Counted from the stretch's first letter, positions 36,660 through 39,063 are shown. The stretch: 50,891 bases of DNA from Minisyncoccota bacterium (GCA_040879725.1 JBBDJV010000010.1:1-50891), one strand, 5' to 3'. The notes: a model not told the origin generated them from the sequence alone. Numbers and translations: made by a program.

Positions 36660-36731
36660 GCCCCTGTGGTGAAATGGATATCACAACGGTCTTCGGAACC
36701 GTTATTCTGGGTTCGAATCCTGGCGGGGGCA
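36660..36731 (+). tRNA. tRNA-Arg(UCG), no encoded CCA
   Basis: A manual cloverleaf fold gives the acceptor GCCCCTG/CGGGGGC, D arm GTGA/TCAC and anticodon stem ACGGT/ACCGT with loop CTTCGGA. The T arm is CTGGG-TTCGAAT-CCTGG and the discriminator is A. Confidence 0.85.
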
Positions 36732-36782
36732 CAATCGTAAAGTCATTTTTTTGTTACCGAGGAAGCGTGGGGACGCTTCTGT

Positions 36783-36887
36783 CCAGGATTCGAAGCCCGA
36801 TTGAGCATTTTATCGAGCCTGAAAGGCGAAGAAAAAATCCAATTGGGGTACTGCTCCTGTAAGGAGAGAATCCTGGCGGGGGCACAA
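36783..36887 (+). repeat. tRNA-linked module E1: inverted T-arm copy, core hairpin, direct copy of the tRNA-Arg 3' end
   Basis: CCAGGATTCGAA (36783-36794) is the reverse complement of 36712-36723. The core hairpin lies at 36796-36847. The stretch 36868-36887 is an exact copy of 36715-36734. Confidence 0.8.
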
Positions 36888-36923
36888 AATTTCTAAAATA
36901 TAGAGAAATAGCTACATATTTTC

Positions 36924-37099
36924 ATTTCTTACGATATATAGTAAGAAATCAATTTAATACAAGGGGCCCCTTGTATTGGATTGATTAGCTACATAGGAAT
37001 ATTTTTCTAACCTGTTTTCAGAACGAGGTTAAACCTCGTTCTGAAAAAGCTATATATAGCAACGTAATTTCATATCAAGGTTTAACCTTGATATGAAAT
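36924..37099. repeat. Field of five perfect palindromes/hairpins in 176 bp
   Basis: The five are: 36924-36949 (9-bp arms), 36956-36977 (22-bp perfect palindrome), 37015-37047 (16+1+16), 37049-37060 (GCTATATATAGC) and 37067-37099 (16+1+16). Confidence 0.85.
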
Positions 37100-37203
37100 A
37101 TCACAATCGTAGTTACTGATTCTTGTATTACCCGCCAAGAACATCTACCTACCCTACCTCACACTTGTCTGCCCTGTCTAACCTACCTTATTTAGTAGGA
37201 ACT

Positions 37204-37384
37204 CTGGCGGTGCCAGAGGTATAGTGGCGGGAGAATCGGTCACGAGTTACTAAGTATAATTCTTCGCTACGCTCGAATTCTACTAAGTACTCTCGACCCT
37301 GCCTGCCGGCAGGCAGGCCCAGCTCGGGACTTTTGCCTTGCGTAAGAACGCAAACAAAAGTATCCCTGCGCTTTTCGATTCTCC
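37204..37384 (-). repeat. tRNA-Gly-linked module: inverted T-arm copy, GC palindrome, GA-loop hairpin, degenerate 3'-end copy
   Basis: On the minus strand, GGAGAATCGAA lies at 37374-37384 and CCTGCCTGCCGGCAGGCAGG at 37298-37317. The hairpin at 37248-37289 has the loop GAGCGTAGCGAA. CGATTCTCCC lies at 37229-37238 and GCACCGCCA at 37204-37212. Confidence 0.65.
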
Positions 37385-37426
37385 ACGCAAGCAAAGCAGT
37401 TTGCTTGCTCTACTCCGCACCGCAAA

Positions 37427-37464
37427 CAAAATTACCGTATTCTTAATCAGAATACGGTAATTTT
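37427..37464 (-). terminator. Terminator after tRNA-Gly
   Basis: ATTACCGTATTC-TTAATCA-GAATACGGTAAT is flanked by an A-run and a T-run. Confidence 0.7.
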
Positions 37465-37469
37465 GGCGG

Positions 37470-37540
37470 TGCGGGTAGGGAGAATCGAACTCCCGACTCA
37501 TCCTTGGCAAGGATGTGTTCTACCACTAAACCATACCCGC
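37470..37540 (-). tRNA. tRNA-Gly(GCC)
   Basis: A manual fold gives the acceptor GCGGGTA/TACCCGC and anticodon stem CATCC/GGATG with loop TTGCCAA. The T arm is GGGAG-TTCGATT-CTCCC. A TATAAT lies 9 nt upstream (37550-37555). Confidence 0.9.
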
Positions 37541-37685
37541 AGTGAAAGCATTATACCCTATCGTAAATTAAAATAAAGAGGATACTGCCTGCTATGTCTG
37601 TTACTCTCATGTTACGTGAGAAACAACTTTTTTGTTTAAATACACAGTGTTTTCCTACAAATATACCCAGAAAAATGTTCAAAAC

Positions 37686-37714
37686 TGTGGATAACTTAGG
37701 GGATATGTGTATAA
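37686..37714. promoter_or_regulatory. Pair of DnaA boxes 20 bp apart, outside oriC
   Basis: TGTGGATAA (37686-37694) is a perfect match and TGTGTATAA (37706-37714) has one mismatch. Both have the same orientation. Confidence 0.4.
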
Positions 37715-37858
37715 AAGACAATAATAGACTTGTCTTTTTATACCACGACTTTGACAAAATGTCCTTATTTAGAGCCACACATTTGACAAAAAGGCAAATA
37801 TATATGTTTCACATGAAACGTAGGTTACATGTGTAACACATCTAGGTAGAATAAGGTA

Positions 37859-38278
37859 ATGAATGAGGATAAAGGTAACTCAAAAAATACAAAAGAAACT
37901 GACAAAGCGAGGGTTGGAAGAATTGGAGAAGATATTGCTGAGATTTTTCTCGTAAAGAAAGGCTACACATTAGATGATAGAAATTTTAGAAAGAAGTGGG
38001 GCGAAATAGATTTGGTTACACATGAAAACAAAATACTGGTTTTTGTTGAAGTAAAAACGGAGAAGGTAAGTGTTACACATGAAAACAAAGGCTATAGGAT
38101 AGAGGAAAATATTCATAAAGATAAACTCAAAAGGCTTACAAGAGCTATTTATAGCTATTTGAAAGAAAAAAACGTTTCTGATGAAACTGAATGGAGGTTG
38201 GATGCGGTTATTGTTAGACTAGATACAGAAAGTAAGAAGGCTAGGGTGTCTCATATTAAAAATATACTAGCGGAGTAG
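37859..38278 (+). CDS. yraN: YraN-family (UPF0102) endonuclease-like protein with an internal insertion
   Basis: The motifs GEDIAEIFLVKKGY, GEIDLV and LVFVEVKT are present. TAGAAT (37847-37852) lies 6 nt before the ATG. An 18-nt exact direct repeat occurs inside the gene (38015-38032 and 38072-38089). Confidence 0.8.
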   Translation: MNEDKGNSKNTKETDKARVGRIGEDIAEIFLVKKGYTLDDRNFRKKWGEIDLVTHENKILVFVEVKTEKVSVTHENKGYRIEENIHKDKLKRLTRAIYSYLKEKNVSDETEWRLDAVIVRLDTESKKARVSHIKNILAE

Positions 38279-38357
38279 CTTAAAGGACATTTGTCTTTTA
38301 TAAAAGACTCTAGCAATTTGTATTTAATATGCTAGACTAGCGTAATCCAAATAGTAT

Positions 38358-38430
38358 CGGGGCGTAGTGTAACGGCTAACATGCTTGATTTGGGATCAAG
38401 TGACTCCGGGTTCGAATCCCGGCGCCCCGA
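38358..38430 (+). tRNA. tRNA-Pro(UGG), no encoded CCA
   Basis: A manual fold gives the acceptor CGGGGCG/CGCCCCG and anticodon stem CTTGA/TCAAG with loop TTTGGGA. The T arm is CCGGG-TTCGAAT-CCCGG. TGCTAGACT lies at 38330-38338. Confidence 0.9.
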
Positions 38431-38451
38431 CAATGTTGTAGTTGTTCTGTT

Positions 38452-38490
38452 CTGCCTACCGCCTGCCTGCCGGTAGGCAGGGCAGGCAGG
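38452..38490 (+). repeat. GC-rich interleaved palindromes (A-B-A'-B')
   Basis: CTGCCTACC (38452-38460) pairs with GGTAGGCAG (38472-38480). CCTGCCTGCC (38462-38471) pairs with GGCAGGCAGG (38481-38490). Confidence 0.8.
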
Positions 38491-38577
38491 CCGATTGAGA
38501 TAGATTATGAGCAAAGCGAAATAATCTATCCAATTGGGGTACTGCTCCTGTAAGGTTCAAGTCCTCTCTCGCGCACA
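38491..38577 (+). repeat. tRNA-linked module E2: core hairpin plus the 3' part of a tRNA-like sequence absent from the window
   Basis: The core lies at 38491-38537. It is followed by GGTACTGCTCCTGTAAGG and then TTCAAGTCCTCTCTCGCGCA. Confidence 0.75.
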
Positions 38578-38640
38578 AAGATTTGAGCAAAGCGAAAAAC
38601 TGTGCGCGAGGCACAGCTTTTTTCTTAAAAAGCGTCGTGC

Positions 38641-38742
38641 GGACTTGAAGCCCGATTGAGATAAATTATGAGCAAAGCGAAATAATTTATCCAATTGGGG
38701 TACTGCTCCTGTAAGGAGAGAATCCCGGCGCCCCGACAATGT
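38641..38742 (+). repeat. tRNA-linked module E3: inverted copy of the E2 T-loop segment, core hairpin, direct copy of the tRNA-Pro 3' end
   Basis: GGACTTGAA (38641-38649) is complementary to 38556-38564. The core lies at 38651-38699. The stretch 38720-38742 is an exact copy of 38414-38436. Confidence 0.8.
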
Positions 38743-39063
38743 AAGGTTCGAGAGTTTGGTGTGTATATGTAAATCAATTTTGCATTACTTGCTCTAAATA
38801 AGCACCAAAGTAATATATCGTGATATTTTCGGTAGGTTCATCTATTTTTACTTTCAGGTGATAAAAGCTGTTTCAAATGAAACAAAGTAGGGAAGTGAGG
38901 AGTTACACATGTAACAATATGCACTTATCCCAGTAAACTAATAGTAGTAATACGCACACTTTAAAGGCTGTAGTAAACGCAAAAACTTGAAAGAGAAGCA
39001 TTATATTGTTTTACTGTAGATACATAACTATAAGCATTTAATTATTTAATACACTTAGTACAC

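Follow-up and report, generated by a model that had tools for sequence, protein, structure and literature searches.

Structured, tRNA-matched cassettes trail tRNA genes of Patescibacteria

Integrative elements that target tRNA genes are bracketed by a direct repeat running from the T-loop to past the tRNA 3′ end, supply a replacement 3′ end that leaves the tRNA intact, and can form arrays at one tRNA. The modules described here share these traits; unlike such elements, they measure 130 to 170 nt, encode no integrase and show none nearby, use one conserved core for at least 36 tRNA species and interleave antisense copies of their target with a covarying scaffold. REP/BIME (REPIN), Correia, ERIC, and BOX sequences are likewise small, non-coding, intergenic, and downstream of genes, and REP/BIME and structured MITEs also have hairpin folds kept by compensatory change, with variable presence and tandem clusters between strains, but each has one fixed sequence, no target-matched arms, and no tie to tRNA 3′ ends. 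REPINs differ further in their dedicated RAYT transposase, and MITEs in their terminal inverted repeats and fixed-length target duplication. Integron attC sites and the CTX-phage attP(+) site have a structure-conserved, strand-specific fold, which the modules appear to share, and resemble them in a stem that mimics a duplex site and in stacking behind one chromosomal site; the modules, however, show no association with IntI or Xer, have a conserved tip and a variable, target-specific stem, and have a tRNA gene as target.

Among RNAs, a scaffold joined to short target-complementary segments is familiar from guide systems (group II intron EBS/IBS, H/ACA, C/D, IS110 bridge RNA, and TnpB omega RNA), in which, as in the modules, different members have different targets. 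In contrast to these, the modules have no partner protein gene in the surveyed loci and no sequence or Rfam similarity, their two guides cover one contiguous target with no unpaired target nucleotides, and their own sense copy of the target occupies the guides. tRNA-like domains (tmRNA, bacterial Y RNA YrlA, and viral 3′ domains) share with them the stacking of an acceptor-like on a T-stem-like helix and, at the place of the D-arm, a side hairpin whose loop is often G-rich, and the U..A pentaloop of the modules (UGUAA) recalls the T-loop motif; yet the T-loop nucleotides of the modules are paired, with a three-way junction instead, there is no free CCA end, and each module mimics a different, neighboring tRNA. 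The hammerhead also has a three-way junction with unpaired GAA, and an A-U closing pair, a single unpaired C, and a helix in succession, but its GAA is found between stems II and III, whereas that of the modules joins P1 to P2, and the order of junction strands is incompatible. Here, we report the modules behind three tRNA genes in a 50,891-nt stretch of DNA (the window) from a Minisyncoccota bacterium (GCA_040879725.1, JBBDJV010000010.1:1-50891) and the large family to which they belong, protein-less cassettes of about 130 to 170 nt at Patescibacteria tRNA 3′ ends.

Results

ARAGORN and Rfam found exactly three tRNA genes in the window:

36660-36732, plus strand: tRNA-Arg(tcg), without encoded CCA
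37468-37540, minus strand: tRNA-Gly(gcc)
38358-38431, plus strand: tRNA-Pro(tgg)

None encodes a complete CCA, as the initial annotation of this DNA had pointed out together with an adjacent cca gene. The adjoining open reading frame (ORF) does have PolyA_pol head and HD domains, as in a CCA-adding enzyme, but its position beside the tRNAs is probably coincidental; the gene order found to recur is tRNA-Arg(tcg), tRNA-Gly(gcc), YraN, tRNA-Pro(tgg).

The pattern behind the window tRNAs is real and far above chance. Every coordinate was verified, as were both direct repeats (20 and 23 nt), the inverted copies of the T-arms, and, at tRNA-Pro, the tail of a foreign tRNA; a 20-mer of the core occurred in none of 100 shuffles, and the 26-mer CCAATTGGGGTACTGCTCCTGTAAGG is identical in the three window cores (36795-36864, 38489-38555, and 38650-38716), all of which sit behind tRNAs. 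An assembly artifact is excluded because more than 150 independent contigs, obtained in many different studies, show the same architecture, and the duplications recur in independent assemblies. The tRNA-Arg module consists of the following parts:

36715-36734, plus strand: left direct repeat, T-loop to 3′ end of tRNA-Arg plus 3 nt of trailer
36762-36779, plus strand: hp hairpin, 7 bp with GGGG loop (GAAGCGU GGGG ACGCUUC)
36783-36794, plus strand: antisense segment x1′, 12/12 match to T54 through the T-stem 3′ strand
36795-36867, plus strand: type-1 core, three-way junction
36868-36887, plus strand: sense copy and right direct repeat, exact 20 nt, G57 to 3′ end plus CAA

The Arg T-arm TTCGAATCCTGG (36712-36723) thus recurs inverted as CCAGGATTCGAA (36783-36794), 3 nt downstream of the hp hairpin, and the direct repeat is exact over 20 nt (36715-36734 = 36868-36887). 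Segment x1′ is the 5′ strand of P1, its terminal GAA unpaired at the junction, and the sense copy is the 3′ strand; between them, the core runs G, P2 (CCCGAUUG...CAAUUGGG, capped by a GAGC..GCGAA motif), G-UACUG, P3 (CUCC UGUAA GGAG), and AGA. This module has no antisense acceptor segment. The acceptor part of its sense copy is exact but has no pairing partner inside the module, which suggests recent duplication rather than selection.

Behind tRNA-Gly, the parts lie on the minus strand:

37428-37464, minus strand: terminator-like palindrome directly behind the tRNA (A-run, 17-bp stem, U-run)
37410-37423, minus strand: antisense segment x2′ to acceptor 3′ strand, discriminator, and trailer, GCGGUGCGGAGUAG
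37387-37408, minus strand: hp hairpin, 9 bp, GCAAGCAAA CUGC UUUGCUUGC
37374-37384, minus strand: antisense segment x1′ to T-loop and T-stem 3′ strand, GGAGAAUCGAA
37238-37373, minus strand: type-2 core, with GAGCUGGG, GUCGAGAGUACUUAGUA, and UACUUAGUAACUCGUGACC in that order
37224-37237, minus strand: degenerate sense copy, GAUUCUCCC matching tRNA-Gly, then diverging

The order of parts is that of the Arg and Pro modules and the terminal copy is degenerate (just 9 nt matching), both as first annotated; the core belongs to another family (type 2). Its 3′ hairpin has 92% and 90% identity with those of two other loci (L111 and L071), and a GC palindrome of 20 to 22 nt (37297-37318) is nested inside it. 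The same palindromic element reappears at the composite tRNA-Pro locus:

38414-38436, plus strand: left direct repeat, tRNA-Pro
38447-38485, plus strand: GC-rich palindrome, same element as 37297-37318
38489-38555, plus strand: type-1 core copy 1 (E2 of the initial annotation), 96% identity with copy 2
38556-38649, plus strand: foreign Leu-like unit
38556-38579, plus strand: tRNA 3′ end in the Leu-like unit, TTCAAGTCCTCTCTCGCGCACAAA, found nowhere else in the window
38584-38597, plus strand: GA-motif mini-hairpin of the Leu-like unit
38600-38625, plus strand: terminator-like hairpin of the Leu-like unit, containing antisense acceptor TGCGCGAG
38641-38649, plus strand: antisense T-arm of the Leu-like unit, GGACTTGAA, opening core copy 2
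38650-38719, plus strand: type-1 core copy 2, with AGA at its end
38720-38742, plus strand: sense copy and right direct repeat, exact 23 nt, G57 to 3′ end plus CAATGT

The outer repeat is exact over 23 nt (38414-38436 = 38720-38742), and the GC-rich palindrome takes the position expected for an antisense segment to the Pro T-arm. Core copy 1 is followed by TTC, not AGA, and its P3 is not closed. The foreign tail and its inverted copy (TTCAAGTCCTCTCTCGCGCACAAA to GGACTTGAA), already seen in the initial annotation, were confirmed, and a further inverted copy, of the acceptor strand of that tail (TGCGCGAG, 38603-38610), was added. Likewise, the order first proposed for the window modules (inverted T-arm, core, sense copy) is borne out but incomplete, as modules also have an 8- to 9-bp hairpin and often an antisense acceptor segment.

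The family comprises 31 genome loci and at least 120 metagenome loci, nearly all from Patescibacteria. The core is abundant in relatives, and cassettes trail hundreds of tRNA genes in these ultra-small Patescibacteria/CPR. Where a tRNA precedes the core on the same strand of the locus (n = 120 cores), the core begins no more than 300 nt downstream of that tRNA in 115 cases; the tRNAs ahead of cores represent 36 different anticodons. None of the refuting conditions set out in the initial annotation was borne out. From 5′ to 3′, the tRNA is followed by a spacer or terminator-like palindrome, an antisense segment to the acceptor 3′ strand (common, not universal), a hairpin (8 to 9 bp in 95/148 modules), an antisense segment to T-loop and T-stem, the three-way-junction core, and a tRNA sense copy from about C56 to the 3′ end. 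The copies are specific to their own tRNA, as had been claimed for the window: an antisense 12-mer with 0 to 1 mismatch matches the module's own tRNA in 89/115 modules (77%) and another tRNA in 8/115. Antisense copies lie downstream of 31/64 tRNAs of the genome loci and upstream of 1/64. A 12-mer of T-stem and acceptor follows the core in 67/108 modules (0/108 controls), and the sense copy is decayed in 38%. Several unrelated core types, with differing junctions, use this common architecture.

Modules also occur within tRNA operons, 12 nt ahead of the next tRNA, and in one locus (L010) a 251-amino-acid ORF lies between the tRNA and its module. Antisense complementarity extends into the trailer, the terminator palindrome, and the encoded CCA where present (L075); the target is therefore the gene or precursor, not the mature tRNA. 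A terminator-like hairpin separates tRNA from module in 36/96 single modules and opposes simple co-transcription there, which counts against the reading preferred below.

In a covariance-model alignment of 130 matches, 95.6% of core helix cells are paired (75.3% when shuffled), compensatory changes occur at 19/20 core pairs, and the covariation score is 0.529 versus 0.153. P1, P2, and P3 all covary; the P3 stem has at least 25 sequence combinations, nearly all Watson-Crick, around its UGUAA loop. Judged from this alignment, selection acts on the fold; of the second hypothesis in the initial annotation, co-transcribed RNAs that pair with the T-arm, covariation supports the part that concerns pairing inside the module. 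G-U dominates the non-Watson-Crick cells at two sites (P2 pair 17:84, G-U n = 52 and G-C n = 41; P1 pair 5:117, G-U n = 22 versus 5 other non-pairs), which suggests that the tRNA-sense strand is the one that folds. T-loop nucleotides 57 to 60 are paired within P1, and the antisense segment pairs the discriminator and position +1. Junction and loop nucleotides, including the unpaired GAA, G-UACUG, and single C of the three-way junction, are near-invariant across deeply divergent Patescibacteria, with junction conservation figures inflated by search patterns that fixed those nucleotides. Covariation of this depth and the fixed helix lengths resemble a functional RNA more than a typical miniature transposable element, a further point against the preferred reading.

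Between loci L004 and L008, empty sites of the kind that the initial annotation had proposed to look for were found: tRNA-Cys is followed by a module in L004 and by 4 nt in L008, and tRNA-Leu(taa) by about 190 nt of modules in L008 and none in L004, each time with near-identical flanks. Behind tRNA-Lys(ctt), three different core types occur across L004, L008, and L077. At tRNAs with differing module content, compensatory changes set the T-arms apart, and the remaining tRNA is near-identical. Tandem arrays were found in five loci (L018, L019, L023, L083, and L137); L071 equals L054 with an extra unit on the tRNA side and a truncated displaced copy, and chimeric modules are present in L042 as well as at the Pro locus of the window. 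Direct repeats vary in length (20, 23, and 39 nt), and the exact repeats of the window reach 3 to 6 nt into the trailer. Modules of the same tRNA are often clearly orthologous across genomes, for example, Leu(tag) in L004/L008 and Ser(tga) in L052/L137, and much inheritance is therefore vertical.

Over the window, Rfam 15 scored only the three tRNAs, with nothing overlapping the cores even at an E value of ≤10, and a literature search found no described family with this architecture, in line with the initial annotation. Neighboring genes (991 ORFs from about 150 loci) were clustered and submitted to family searches; in about 1 Mb of flanking sequence, no recombinase (the cognate enzyme that had been suggested included), transposase, reverse transcriptase, or TnpB recurs. 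Nor does any IntI-, Xer-, or Y1/HUH-like gene recur near modules or TnpA near cores, and no RAYT gene, or DEDD recombinase gene beside modules, was seen in the surveyed loci. No free or circular module form was seen, and the viral contigs searched gave no module match; with the absence of a recurrent mobility enzyme, this too speaks against the reading preferred below.

Described classes were compared with the modules one by one. As tRNA-targeting integrative elements, the modules have the expected repeats (exact 20 and 23 nt; sense copy in 67/108) but not the integrase, with inserts of 130 to 170 nt and no recurrent recombinase. MITEs do not fit repeats of 20, 23, and 39 nt or inverted segments that are internal and target-derived, not terminal; REP/REPIN sequences do not fit cores found only behind tRNAs (3/3 in the window; 115/120 cores with an upstream tRNA in the loci) and not spread intergenically. 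Unlike IS200/IS605 derivatives (PATE) and TnpB omega RNA, the modules have a target duplication, and their putative guide is paired by an internal antisense segment; the loops of IS110 bridge RNA bind left and right halves, but in the modules a single target segment is covered by both the antisense and the sense segments, and no DEDD recombinase gene was found. For a tRNA-like domain (tmRNA/YrlA), T-loop nucleotides 57 to 60 lie in P1 and the discriminator and +1 are paired. For a hammerhead ribozyme, CUGAnGA is missing, the GAA is misplaced, and Rfam gives no match at an E value of ≤10.

Discussion

The reading that we tentatively prefer, at a little below even confidence, is that the modules are non-autonomous, structured, tRNA-anchored cassettes that enter by recombination in the tRNA 3′ segment. 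Each unit consists of a working T-loop-to-3′-end copy, a spacer that is often a terminator-like palindrome, antisense segments (one, or two separated by the 8- to 9-bp hairpin), and the core, and it has the functional 3′ end of the tRNA on one side and a displaced second copy of that end on the other. Entry would proceed by recombination in the segment common to cassette and target, the sense copy starting in the T-loop at about C56/R57 (farther upstream in some events); the tRNA would stay intact, with its former 3′ end left behind the unit as a trailing copy. Arrays and replacements could then result from repeated entry, from unequal crossing-over, and from recombination between cores, as could chimeras, among them the Leu-like unit at tRNA-Pro. 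The tRNA-sense strand is predicted to fold on itself, most simply as a read-through transcript from the tRNA promoter, possibly also as single-stranded DNA (ssDNA); antisense and sense segments would pair into P1 and an acceptor helix, which together resemble an acceptor/T-stem; the hairpin would be a side arm, and the core would stand in for the T-loop. The fold probably serves trans-acting machinery, which maintains the cassette or moves it, as a structure for recognition or processing; host tRNA-processing or recombination enzymes are candidates.

Miniature integrative elements had been proposed in the initial annotation, and presence/absence and type replacement at orthologous tRNAs (L004, L008, and L077), arrays, chimeras, and exact repeats into the trailer speak for that part of it; the missing recombinase, the variable repeat length, and the antisense interleaving do not. 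Plain integration leaves unexplained how antisense segments that are interleaved with conserved scaffold came to match each of 36 tRNAs, which also weighs against the preferred reading.

A close rival, possible but on balance unlikely, sees the modules as resident noncoding RNA (ncRNA) genes, one per tRNA, acting in tRNA metabolism through processing, quality control, regulation, or as decoys for acceptor/T-arm-binding proteins. Such RNAs would have a tRNA-like acceptor/T helix, a hairpin arm, and a three-way junction replacing the T-loop, or their antisense arms would pair with the 3′ half of the precursor tRNA; the flanking direct repeats would give rise to arrays, gains, and losses as a side effect. 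The strong covariation, the G-U excess at two sites, the fixed 8- to 9-bp hairpin, and the near-invariant junction and loop all agree with this, as do antisense segments kept complementary to the neighboring tRNA in 77% of modules, modules at about half of the tRNAs in the genome loci and inside tRNA operons, their conservation as orthologs between species, and the lack of a mobility gene in the surveyed loci. For an essential partner RNA, however, one would not expect presence and core type to vary at the same tRNA in close relatives, or one architecture to hold several unrelated core types. Complementarity to the trailer, terminator palindrome, and encoded CCA does not address the mature tRNA, and the acceptor-like helix, pairing discriminator and +1, leaves no free 3′ end; sense copies are decayed in 38% of modules, and the exact but partnerless Arg acceptor copy points to recent duplication rather than selection.

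An improbable alternative places the fold in ssDNA: folded tRNA-sense DNA would mimic the duplex tRNA 3′ segment and be acted on by a host tyrosine recombinase or HUH enzyme, on the model of integron attC sites, CTX-phage attP(+), or IS200/IS605 ends. attC sites have a conserved structure and variable stem sequence, as the modules do. The fold is apparently strand-specific and tolerates G-T, the stem reproduces the target duplex with the breakpoint at the junction, and unit arrays behind one "attI-like" tRNA resemble cassette arrays, but no IntI was found in the loci, no Xer-like or Y1/HUH gene recurs near modules, repeat length is not constant, and conservation is reversed, attC having conserved stem boxes and a variable tip where the modules conserve the tip, not the stem.

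It is quite doubtful that the core works as a small ribozyme that cleaves or ligates itself, hammerhead-like or acting in tRNA 3′ processing like the theta ribozymes of gut phages. It would be predicted to cut at the junction C before the sense copy, giving trailer processing or unit-length, possibly circular, RNAs. Ribozymes next to tRNA genes have a precedent (PMC10879173), and hammerhead block permutations (PMC10085705) served as the comparison for junction order: no permutation, circular or block, puts GAA between the helices where the modules have it. The near-invariant unpaired GAA, G-UACUG, and single C of the three-way junction would suit a ribozyme, as would the tandem unit-length repeats known in the family and a P3 mostly closed by A-U and followed by an unpaired C and a helix, locally like A15.1-U16.1, C17, and stem I. 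The CUGAnGA block is missing, however, no Rfam ribozyme family matches at an E value of ≤10, and the junctions differ in other core types.

Leftovers of integrase-mediated integration (phage or island attL/attR duplications with decayed element DNA) are highly improbable and close to refuted: the repeats start in the T-loop and stop shortly after the tRNA 3′ end, the classical signature of the T-loop class that is reportedly among the tRNA integration sites in the 2002 classification of Williams, and the L010 interval contains an ORF, but the intervals are 130 to 170 nt, no integrase recurs in the loci, no viral contig matches, att sites have no antisense copies, and the core is conserved with compensatory substitutions in at least 150 loci and 36 tRNAs, which argues against this origin because decayed remnants would not covary.

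It is conceivable, though rather unlikely, that the modules are protein-less programmable elements, a conserved structured RNA, made up of the hairpin and the three-way-junction core, with a bipartite guide to the T-loop-to-3′-end segment of one tRNA gene. If so, the element would use the guide to insert or copy itself at that gene, and the family would represent an RNA- or structure-guided miniature mobile element, possibly catalytic, on tRNA genes across Patescibacteria.

Modules of the window

ARAGORN and Rfam placed three tRNA genes in the window, each trailed by a module. Every element of these loci listed in the initial annotation was recovered in place; the two entries marked "added" and the full set of parts of the Gly module extend that list.

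Features of the three tRNA loci of the window (coordinates, strand where assigned, feature)
36660-36732, plus strand, tRNA-Arg(tcg)
36715-36734 = 36868-36887, exact 20-nt direct repeat of the Arg module
36762-36779, 7-bp hairpin with GGGG loop, 5' of the Arg antisense segment (added)
36783-36794, inverted 12-mer CCAGGATTCGAA of the Arg module
37224-37237, minus strand, degenerate sense copy of the Gly module
37238-37373, minus strand, type-2 core of the Gly module
37374-37384, minus strand, antisense T-arm of the Gly module
37387-37408, minus strand, hairpin of the Gly module
37410-37423, minus strand, antisense acceptor of the Gly module
37428-37464, minus strand, terminator-like palindrome of the Gly module
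37468-37540, minus strand, tRNA-Gly(gcc)
38358-38431, plus strand, tRNA-Pro(tgg)
38414-38436 = 38720-38742, exact 23-nt direct repeat of the Pro locus
38556-38579, foreign tRNA tail TTCAAGTCCTCTCTCGCGCACAAA at the Pro locus
38603-38610, inverted copy of the foreign acceptor strand, TGCGCGAG (added)
38641-38649, inverted T-arm copy of the foreign tail, GGACTTGAA, at the Pro locus

The three type-1 cores (36795-36864, 38489-38555, and 38650-38716) share the 26-mer CCAATTGGGGTACTGCTCCTGTAAGG, as claimed; a covariance model run on the window found cores at these places only, and a core 20-mer had zero occurrences in shuffled sequence. The proposed likeness of the Gly module to the others held for the order of parts (full anatomy, minus strand) and failed for the core, which is of type 2. 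In order, the parts of the Pro locus are core 1, Leu-like tail, antisense Leu, core 2, and Pro tail, as would be expected had a 161-nt Leu-type unit recombined into a Pro module via the conserved core.

A GC-rich perfect palindrome of 20 to 22 nt (CCTGCCTGCCGGCAGGCAGG; 37297-37318 and 38461-38482, arms also 38447-38485) is nested in two modules, cutting the type-2 core of the Gly module exactly between GGG and GTC and occupying, at the Pro locus, the expected place of the core 1 antisense T-arm. It resembles a tiny insertion element in its own right and was seen outside the window only in a near-identical contig (L032). Between the Arg and Gly modules, positions 36920-37100 are AT-rich and dense in long perfect hairpins (36921-36952, 36947-36986, 37015-37047, and 37067-37099, the last two mutually related), with no ORF or known RNA.

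Consensus anatomy

Read along the tRNA-sense strand, a unit runs from the tRNA through a spacer, an antisense acceptor segment (x2'), a hairpin (hp), an antisense T-arm segment (x1'), the core, and a single C (or A/C) to a sense copy of the tRNA. The tRNA end and the antisense T-arm segment are separated by a median of 56 nt, and a terminator-like palindrome (A-run, hairpin, T-run) lies between them in 36 of 96 single modules. The x2' segment, antisense of the acceptor 3' strand, the discriminator, and 1 to 2 nt more, was found in 53/115 modules; the hp stem measures 8 to 9 bp in 95/148, its loop often being GGG or GGGG; and x1' is antisense from T54 through the T-stem 3' strand, ending in GAA in every case. 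The sense copy spans R57 to slightly beyond the tRNA 3' end.

The copies are specific to each tRNA, as first proposed: the antisense 12-mer matched its own tRNA with 0 to 1 mismatch in 89/115 modules versus 8/115 for a random other tRNA, and mismatches were concentrated at the two stem-distal positions, their types favoring neither RNA-level nor DNA-level pairing. The idea that cores always end in a copy of their own tRNA stood in part, with a T-stem plus acceptor 12-mer (≤2 mismatches) after the core in 67/108 modules (0/108 controls) and not in the rest; in the T-loop remnant of those 67 sense copies, 17 carry a regular 1- to 2-nt bulge and 2 an 11- to 14-nt insertion. Where tRNA genes encode CCA, the antisense contains TGG, and at one locus (L075) complementarity runs on through trailer and palindrome; the antisense thus matches the gene or precursor rather than the mature tRNA.

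A 14-nt mini-hairpin (AAAUGUACUCAUGG or AAGCGUACUCGCGG) breaks the T-loop remnant of sense copies at L033, L049, L058, L072, L092, and L149, and in many others a regular bulge of 2 nt occupies this position (GAA[AY]UCC).

Distribution

Exact matches to the 20-mer GGGGTACTGCTCCTGTAAGG were sought in one genome per species and gave 31 loci, all but a few in Patescibacteria (Saccharibacteria, Paceibacterota, Kaiserbacteria, and Zambryskibacteria). A degenerate pattern retrieved at least 120 metagenome stretches, confirming that the core occurs beyond the window; type-1 cores number at least 161 over all loci. Their supposed constant position behind tRNAs is frequent, not universal: among the cores listed, 120 have a same-strand tRNA upstream in the locus, which is within 300 nt for 115 of them and within 120 nt for 99, with at least 36 different anticodons represented. 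Most other cores lie where a contig ends or downstream of a decayed tRNA tail. Considering all tRNAs of the 31 genome loci, 31/64 have an antisense copy of their own T-loop plus T-stem within 700 nt downstream and only 1/64 upstream (cross-control rate with other tRNAs, 2.7%).

Viral contigs searched with the exact 20-mer and the degenerate pattern gave no match and no apparent sign of a phage origin. Rfam 15 (gathering thresholds and E ≤ 10) returned tRNAs only, plus weak microRNA-type noise, and no description of the modules was found in the published literature searched, in keeping with the initial annotation, which had recognized no described element family.

Fold and covariation

Single-sequence folding gave a three-way junction (z-scores, −2.6 to −7.8), in which P1 is x1' paired with the sense copy, P2 is a long hairpin, often with a small covarying GAGC-NNN-GCGAA cap, and P3 is a 4- to 5-bp stem with loop UGUAA; full-length modules add an acceptor-like helix and the hp side arm below P1. 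In a covariance-model alignment of 130 hits, paired cells amounted to 95.6% (75.3% in shuffles), compensatory changes occurred in 19/20 pairs, and the covariation score was 0.529, versus 0.153 in shuffles and at most 0.13 with partners slid. P3 takes 25 or more different sequence combinations, almost all of them with Watson-Crick pairing. The covariation support is on par with that for many accepted RNA families. The near-invariance of GAAG, G-UACUG, and UGUAA is partly imposed by the search patterns. G-U is common (P2 pair 17:84, 52 G-U and 41 G-C; P1 pair 5:117, 22 G-U versus 5 other non-pairs) where A-C is not, and the fold therefore appears to be that of the tRNA-sense strand. The simplest reading is that the folded molecule is RNA, single-stranded DNA being the alternative.

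The type-2 core is conserved as well: its 3' hairpin shares 92% identity with a module that follows tRNA-Glu (L111) and 90% with one that follows tRNA-Gly(tcc) (L071). It too forms a three-way junction, in which the antisense segment is followed by GAAA and the sense copy is preceded by C. Type-2 counts are illustrative only, as the regular expression anchored the 5' end poorly. At least three further core types have the same architecture.

A mini-hairpin, (U)GAGC-AAA-GCGAA(A) (12 to 14 nt), occurs at many loci at the P2 tip and in the spacer just after tRNAs (window, 38508-38521, 38584-38597, and 38669-38682). Its two Watson-Crick pairs are flanked by tandem G-A, it covaries (e.g., GAAC-GUA-GUGAA), and it may be a kink-turn-like motif for protein binding.

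Turnover between genomes

A search for close relatives of the window via its YraN protein gave one 1-kb contig only, so evidence on empty sites was taken from other genomes. Three related Paceibacterota share an operon of tRNA-Cys, Leu(taa), Lys(ctt), and Leu(tag), and here filled and empty sites were found, as a mobile element would predict: tRNA-Cys is followed by a 136-nt module in L004 versus 4 nt in L008, and Leu(taa) by ~190 nt of modules in L008 and none in L004, with both flanks near-identical. Behind tRNA-Lys, the three genomes have three different core types. Between L004 and L008, several compensatory changes separate the T-arms of Leu(taa) and Lys(ctt), the remainder of each tRNA being near-identical, and this divergence falls exactly at tRNAs whose module content differs, which is what cassette-borne replacement of the tRNA 3' part would give. 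Tandem arrays are frequent (L018, L019, L023, L083, and L137); L071 equals L054 plus one extra tRNA-proximal unit, the displaced copy being truncated; and L042 is a chimera, with antisense for the local Arg(gcg) and a sense copy nearer Arg(tct) (4 mismatches, versus 7 to the local tRNA).

Neighboring genes

Clustering of 991 ORFs from ~150 loci revealed no recurrent recombinase, transposase, reverse transcriptase, or TnpB, and thus no sign there of the cognate recombinase that had been envisaged; nor did the adjacency of cca, noted in the window, recur across loci. The commonest neighbor was YraN/UPF0102 (17 loci), because gene order is conserved (tRNA-Arg(tcg), HTH protein, tRNA-Gly(gcc), YraN, tRNA-Pro(tgg)); the window has the same Arg-Gly-YraN-Pro order without the HTH gene. 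The most frequent neighbor families were rejected as helpers, reflecting conserved gene order (YraN and the HTH protein) or housekeeping genes. Enlarged cassettes may carry cargo: ORFs of 251 aa (L010, 5072-5827, behind tRNA-Val) and 105 aa (L011, 3608-3925) lie between a tRNA and its distant module and belong to no Pfam, NCBIfam, or PHROG family.

The order tRNA-Arg(tcg), tRNA-Gly(gcc), YraN/UPF0102, tRNA-Pro(tgg) is kept across Patescibacteria (window 36660-38431, L059, L061, L069, L073, L075, L110, L131, L139, and others), placing a predicted structure-specific nuclease, YraN, inside a tRNA cluster; the nuclease may have a bearing on the modules or on tRNA biology. Partly palindromic copies of GTTACACATG(T/A)AAC (37824-37842, 38015-38032, 38072-38089, and 38897-38919) flank YraN and lie within it, the two internal ones forming an exact repeat of 18 nt, which gives VTHENK twice in the protein; these sites may be operator-like. 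The HTH protein (~225 aa; 449 homologues at ~60% identity) is highly conserved in Patescibacteria and ends 0 to 15 nt before a tRNA gene (Gly-gcc, Gly-tcc, Tyr, or Thr), as at L059 (611-1336), L006 (3822-4505), L013 (2244-2912), L075 (two tandem copies), and others. It comprises an N-terminal HTH, a long helix, and a C-terminal alpha/beta domain. A LAGLIDADG endonuclease ("AGLMLY..EGD" motif) was considered and dropped, the confident AlphaFold model (pLDDT 90) having no significant fold match in the PDB.

Interpretation

Two facts have to be explained, namely, a single-stranded fold under long-term selection and module DNA that is turned over between genomes, leaving an insertion signature in the tRNA 3' segment. 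Because both need explaining, we tentatively favor non-autonomous structured cassettes, which would enter by recombination inside the tRNA 3' segment common to cassette and target and whose fold would be the feature recognized by trans-acting machinery. In a version without a dedicated enzyme, taken-up DNA could recombine homologously, with the conserved tRNA and the tail copy as its two arms of homology.

The closest rival, that the modules are resident RNA genes matched to their tRNAs, would accommodate the selected fold and put turnover down to instability through flanking repeats; we consider it somewhat less likely than the cassette reading. A reading as integron- or CTX-type sites made of folded single-stranded DNA has a low probability, and a new ribozyme a slightly lower one. 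Decayed remnants of ordinary integrations are the least likely, given the covariation. A plain att model cannot explain antisense segments that are interleaved with a conserved scaffold and match at least 36 tRNAs. The match to so many tRNAs could have arisen by slow lineage-by-lineage divergence, by templated quasi-palindrome correction with the nearby tRNA end, or by a true copying step.

Among known systems, programmable guide RNAs share the logic of a conserved scaffold interleaved with target-matched sequence, but the modules have no visible partner protein. Hammerhead ribozymes, block permutations included, were rejected on comparison with PMC10085705, and HDV-like/theta ribozymes, group I introns, H/ACA, C/D, omega, and bridge RNAs on architecture and missing partner genes. 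The modules do not show the full defining features of tRNA-targeting integrative elements, MITEs, REPINs, IS200/605 or omega RNA, bridge RNA, hammerhead ribozymes, tRNA-like domains, or any Rfam family, and probably not those of attC sites. Judged on sequences that all come from uncultivated organisms, this architecture has apparently not been described before.

In the sampled loci, about half of the tRNAs carry a module; if the picture is true, an undescribed element accompanies a large share of the tRNA genes of a major bacterial branch. Since repeated 70- to 90-nt cores sit at many loci, the modules would be a source of genome rearrangement. They can also mislead tRNA annotation and the detection of prophages and genomic islands, for which partial tRNA duplications serve as markers. 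Their study could yield a new RNA fold or ribozyme; it could also bring to light a new means by which selfish DNA or RNA exploits tRNA genes, or an additional layer of tRNA biology in minimal-genome organisms.
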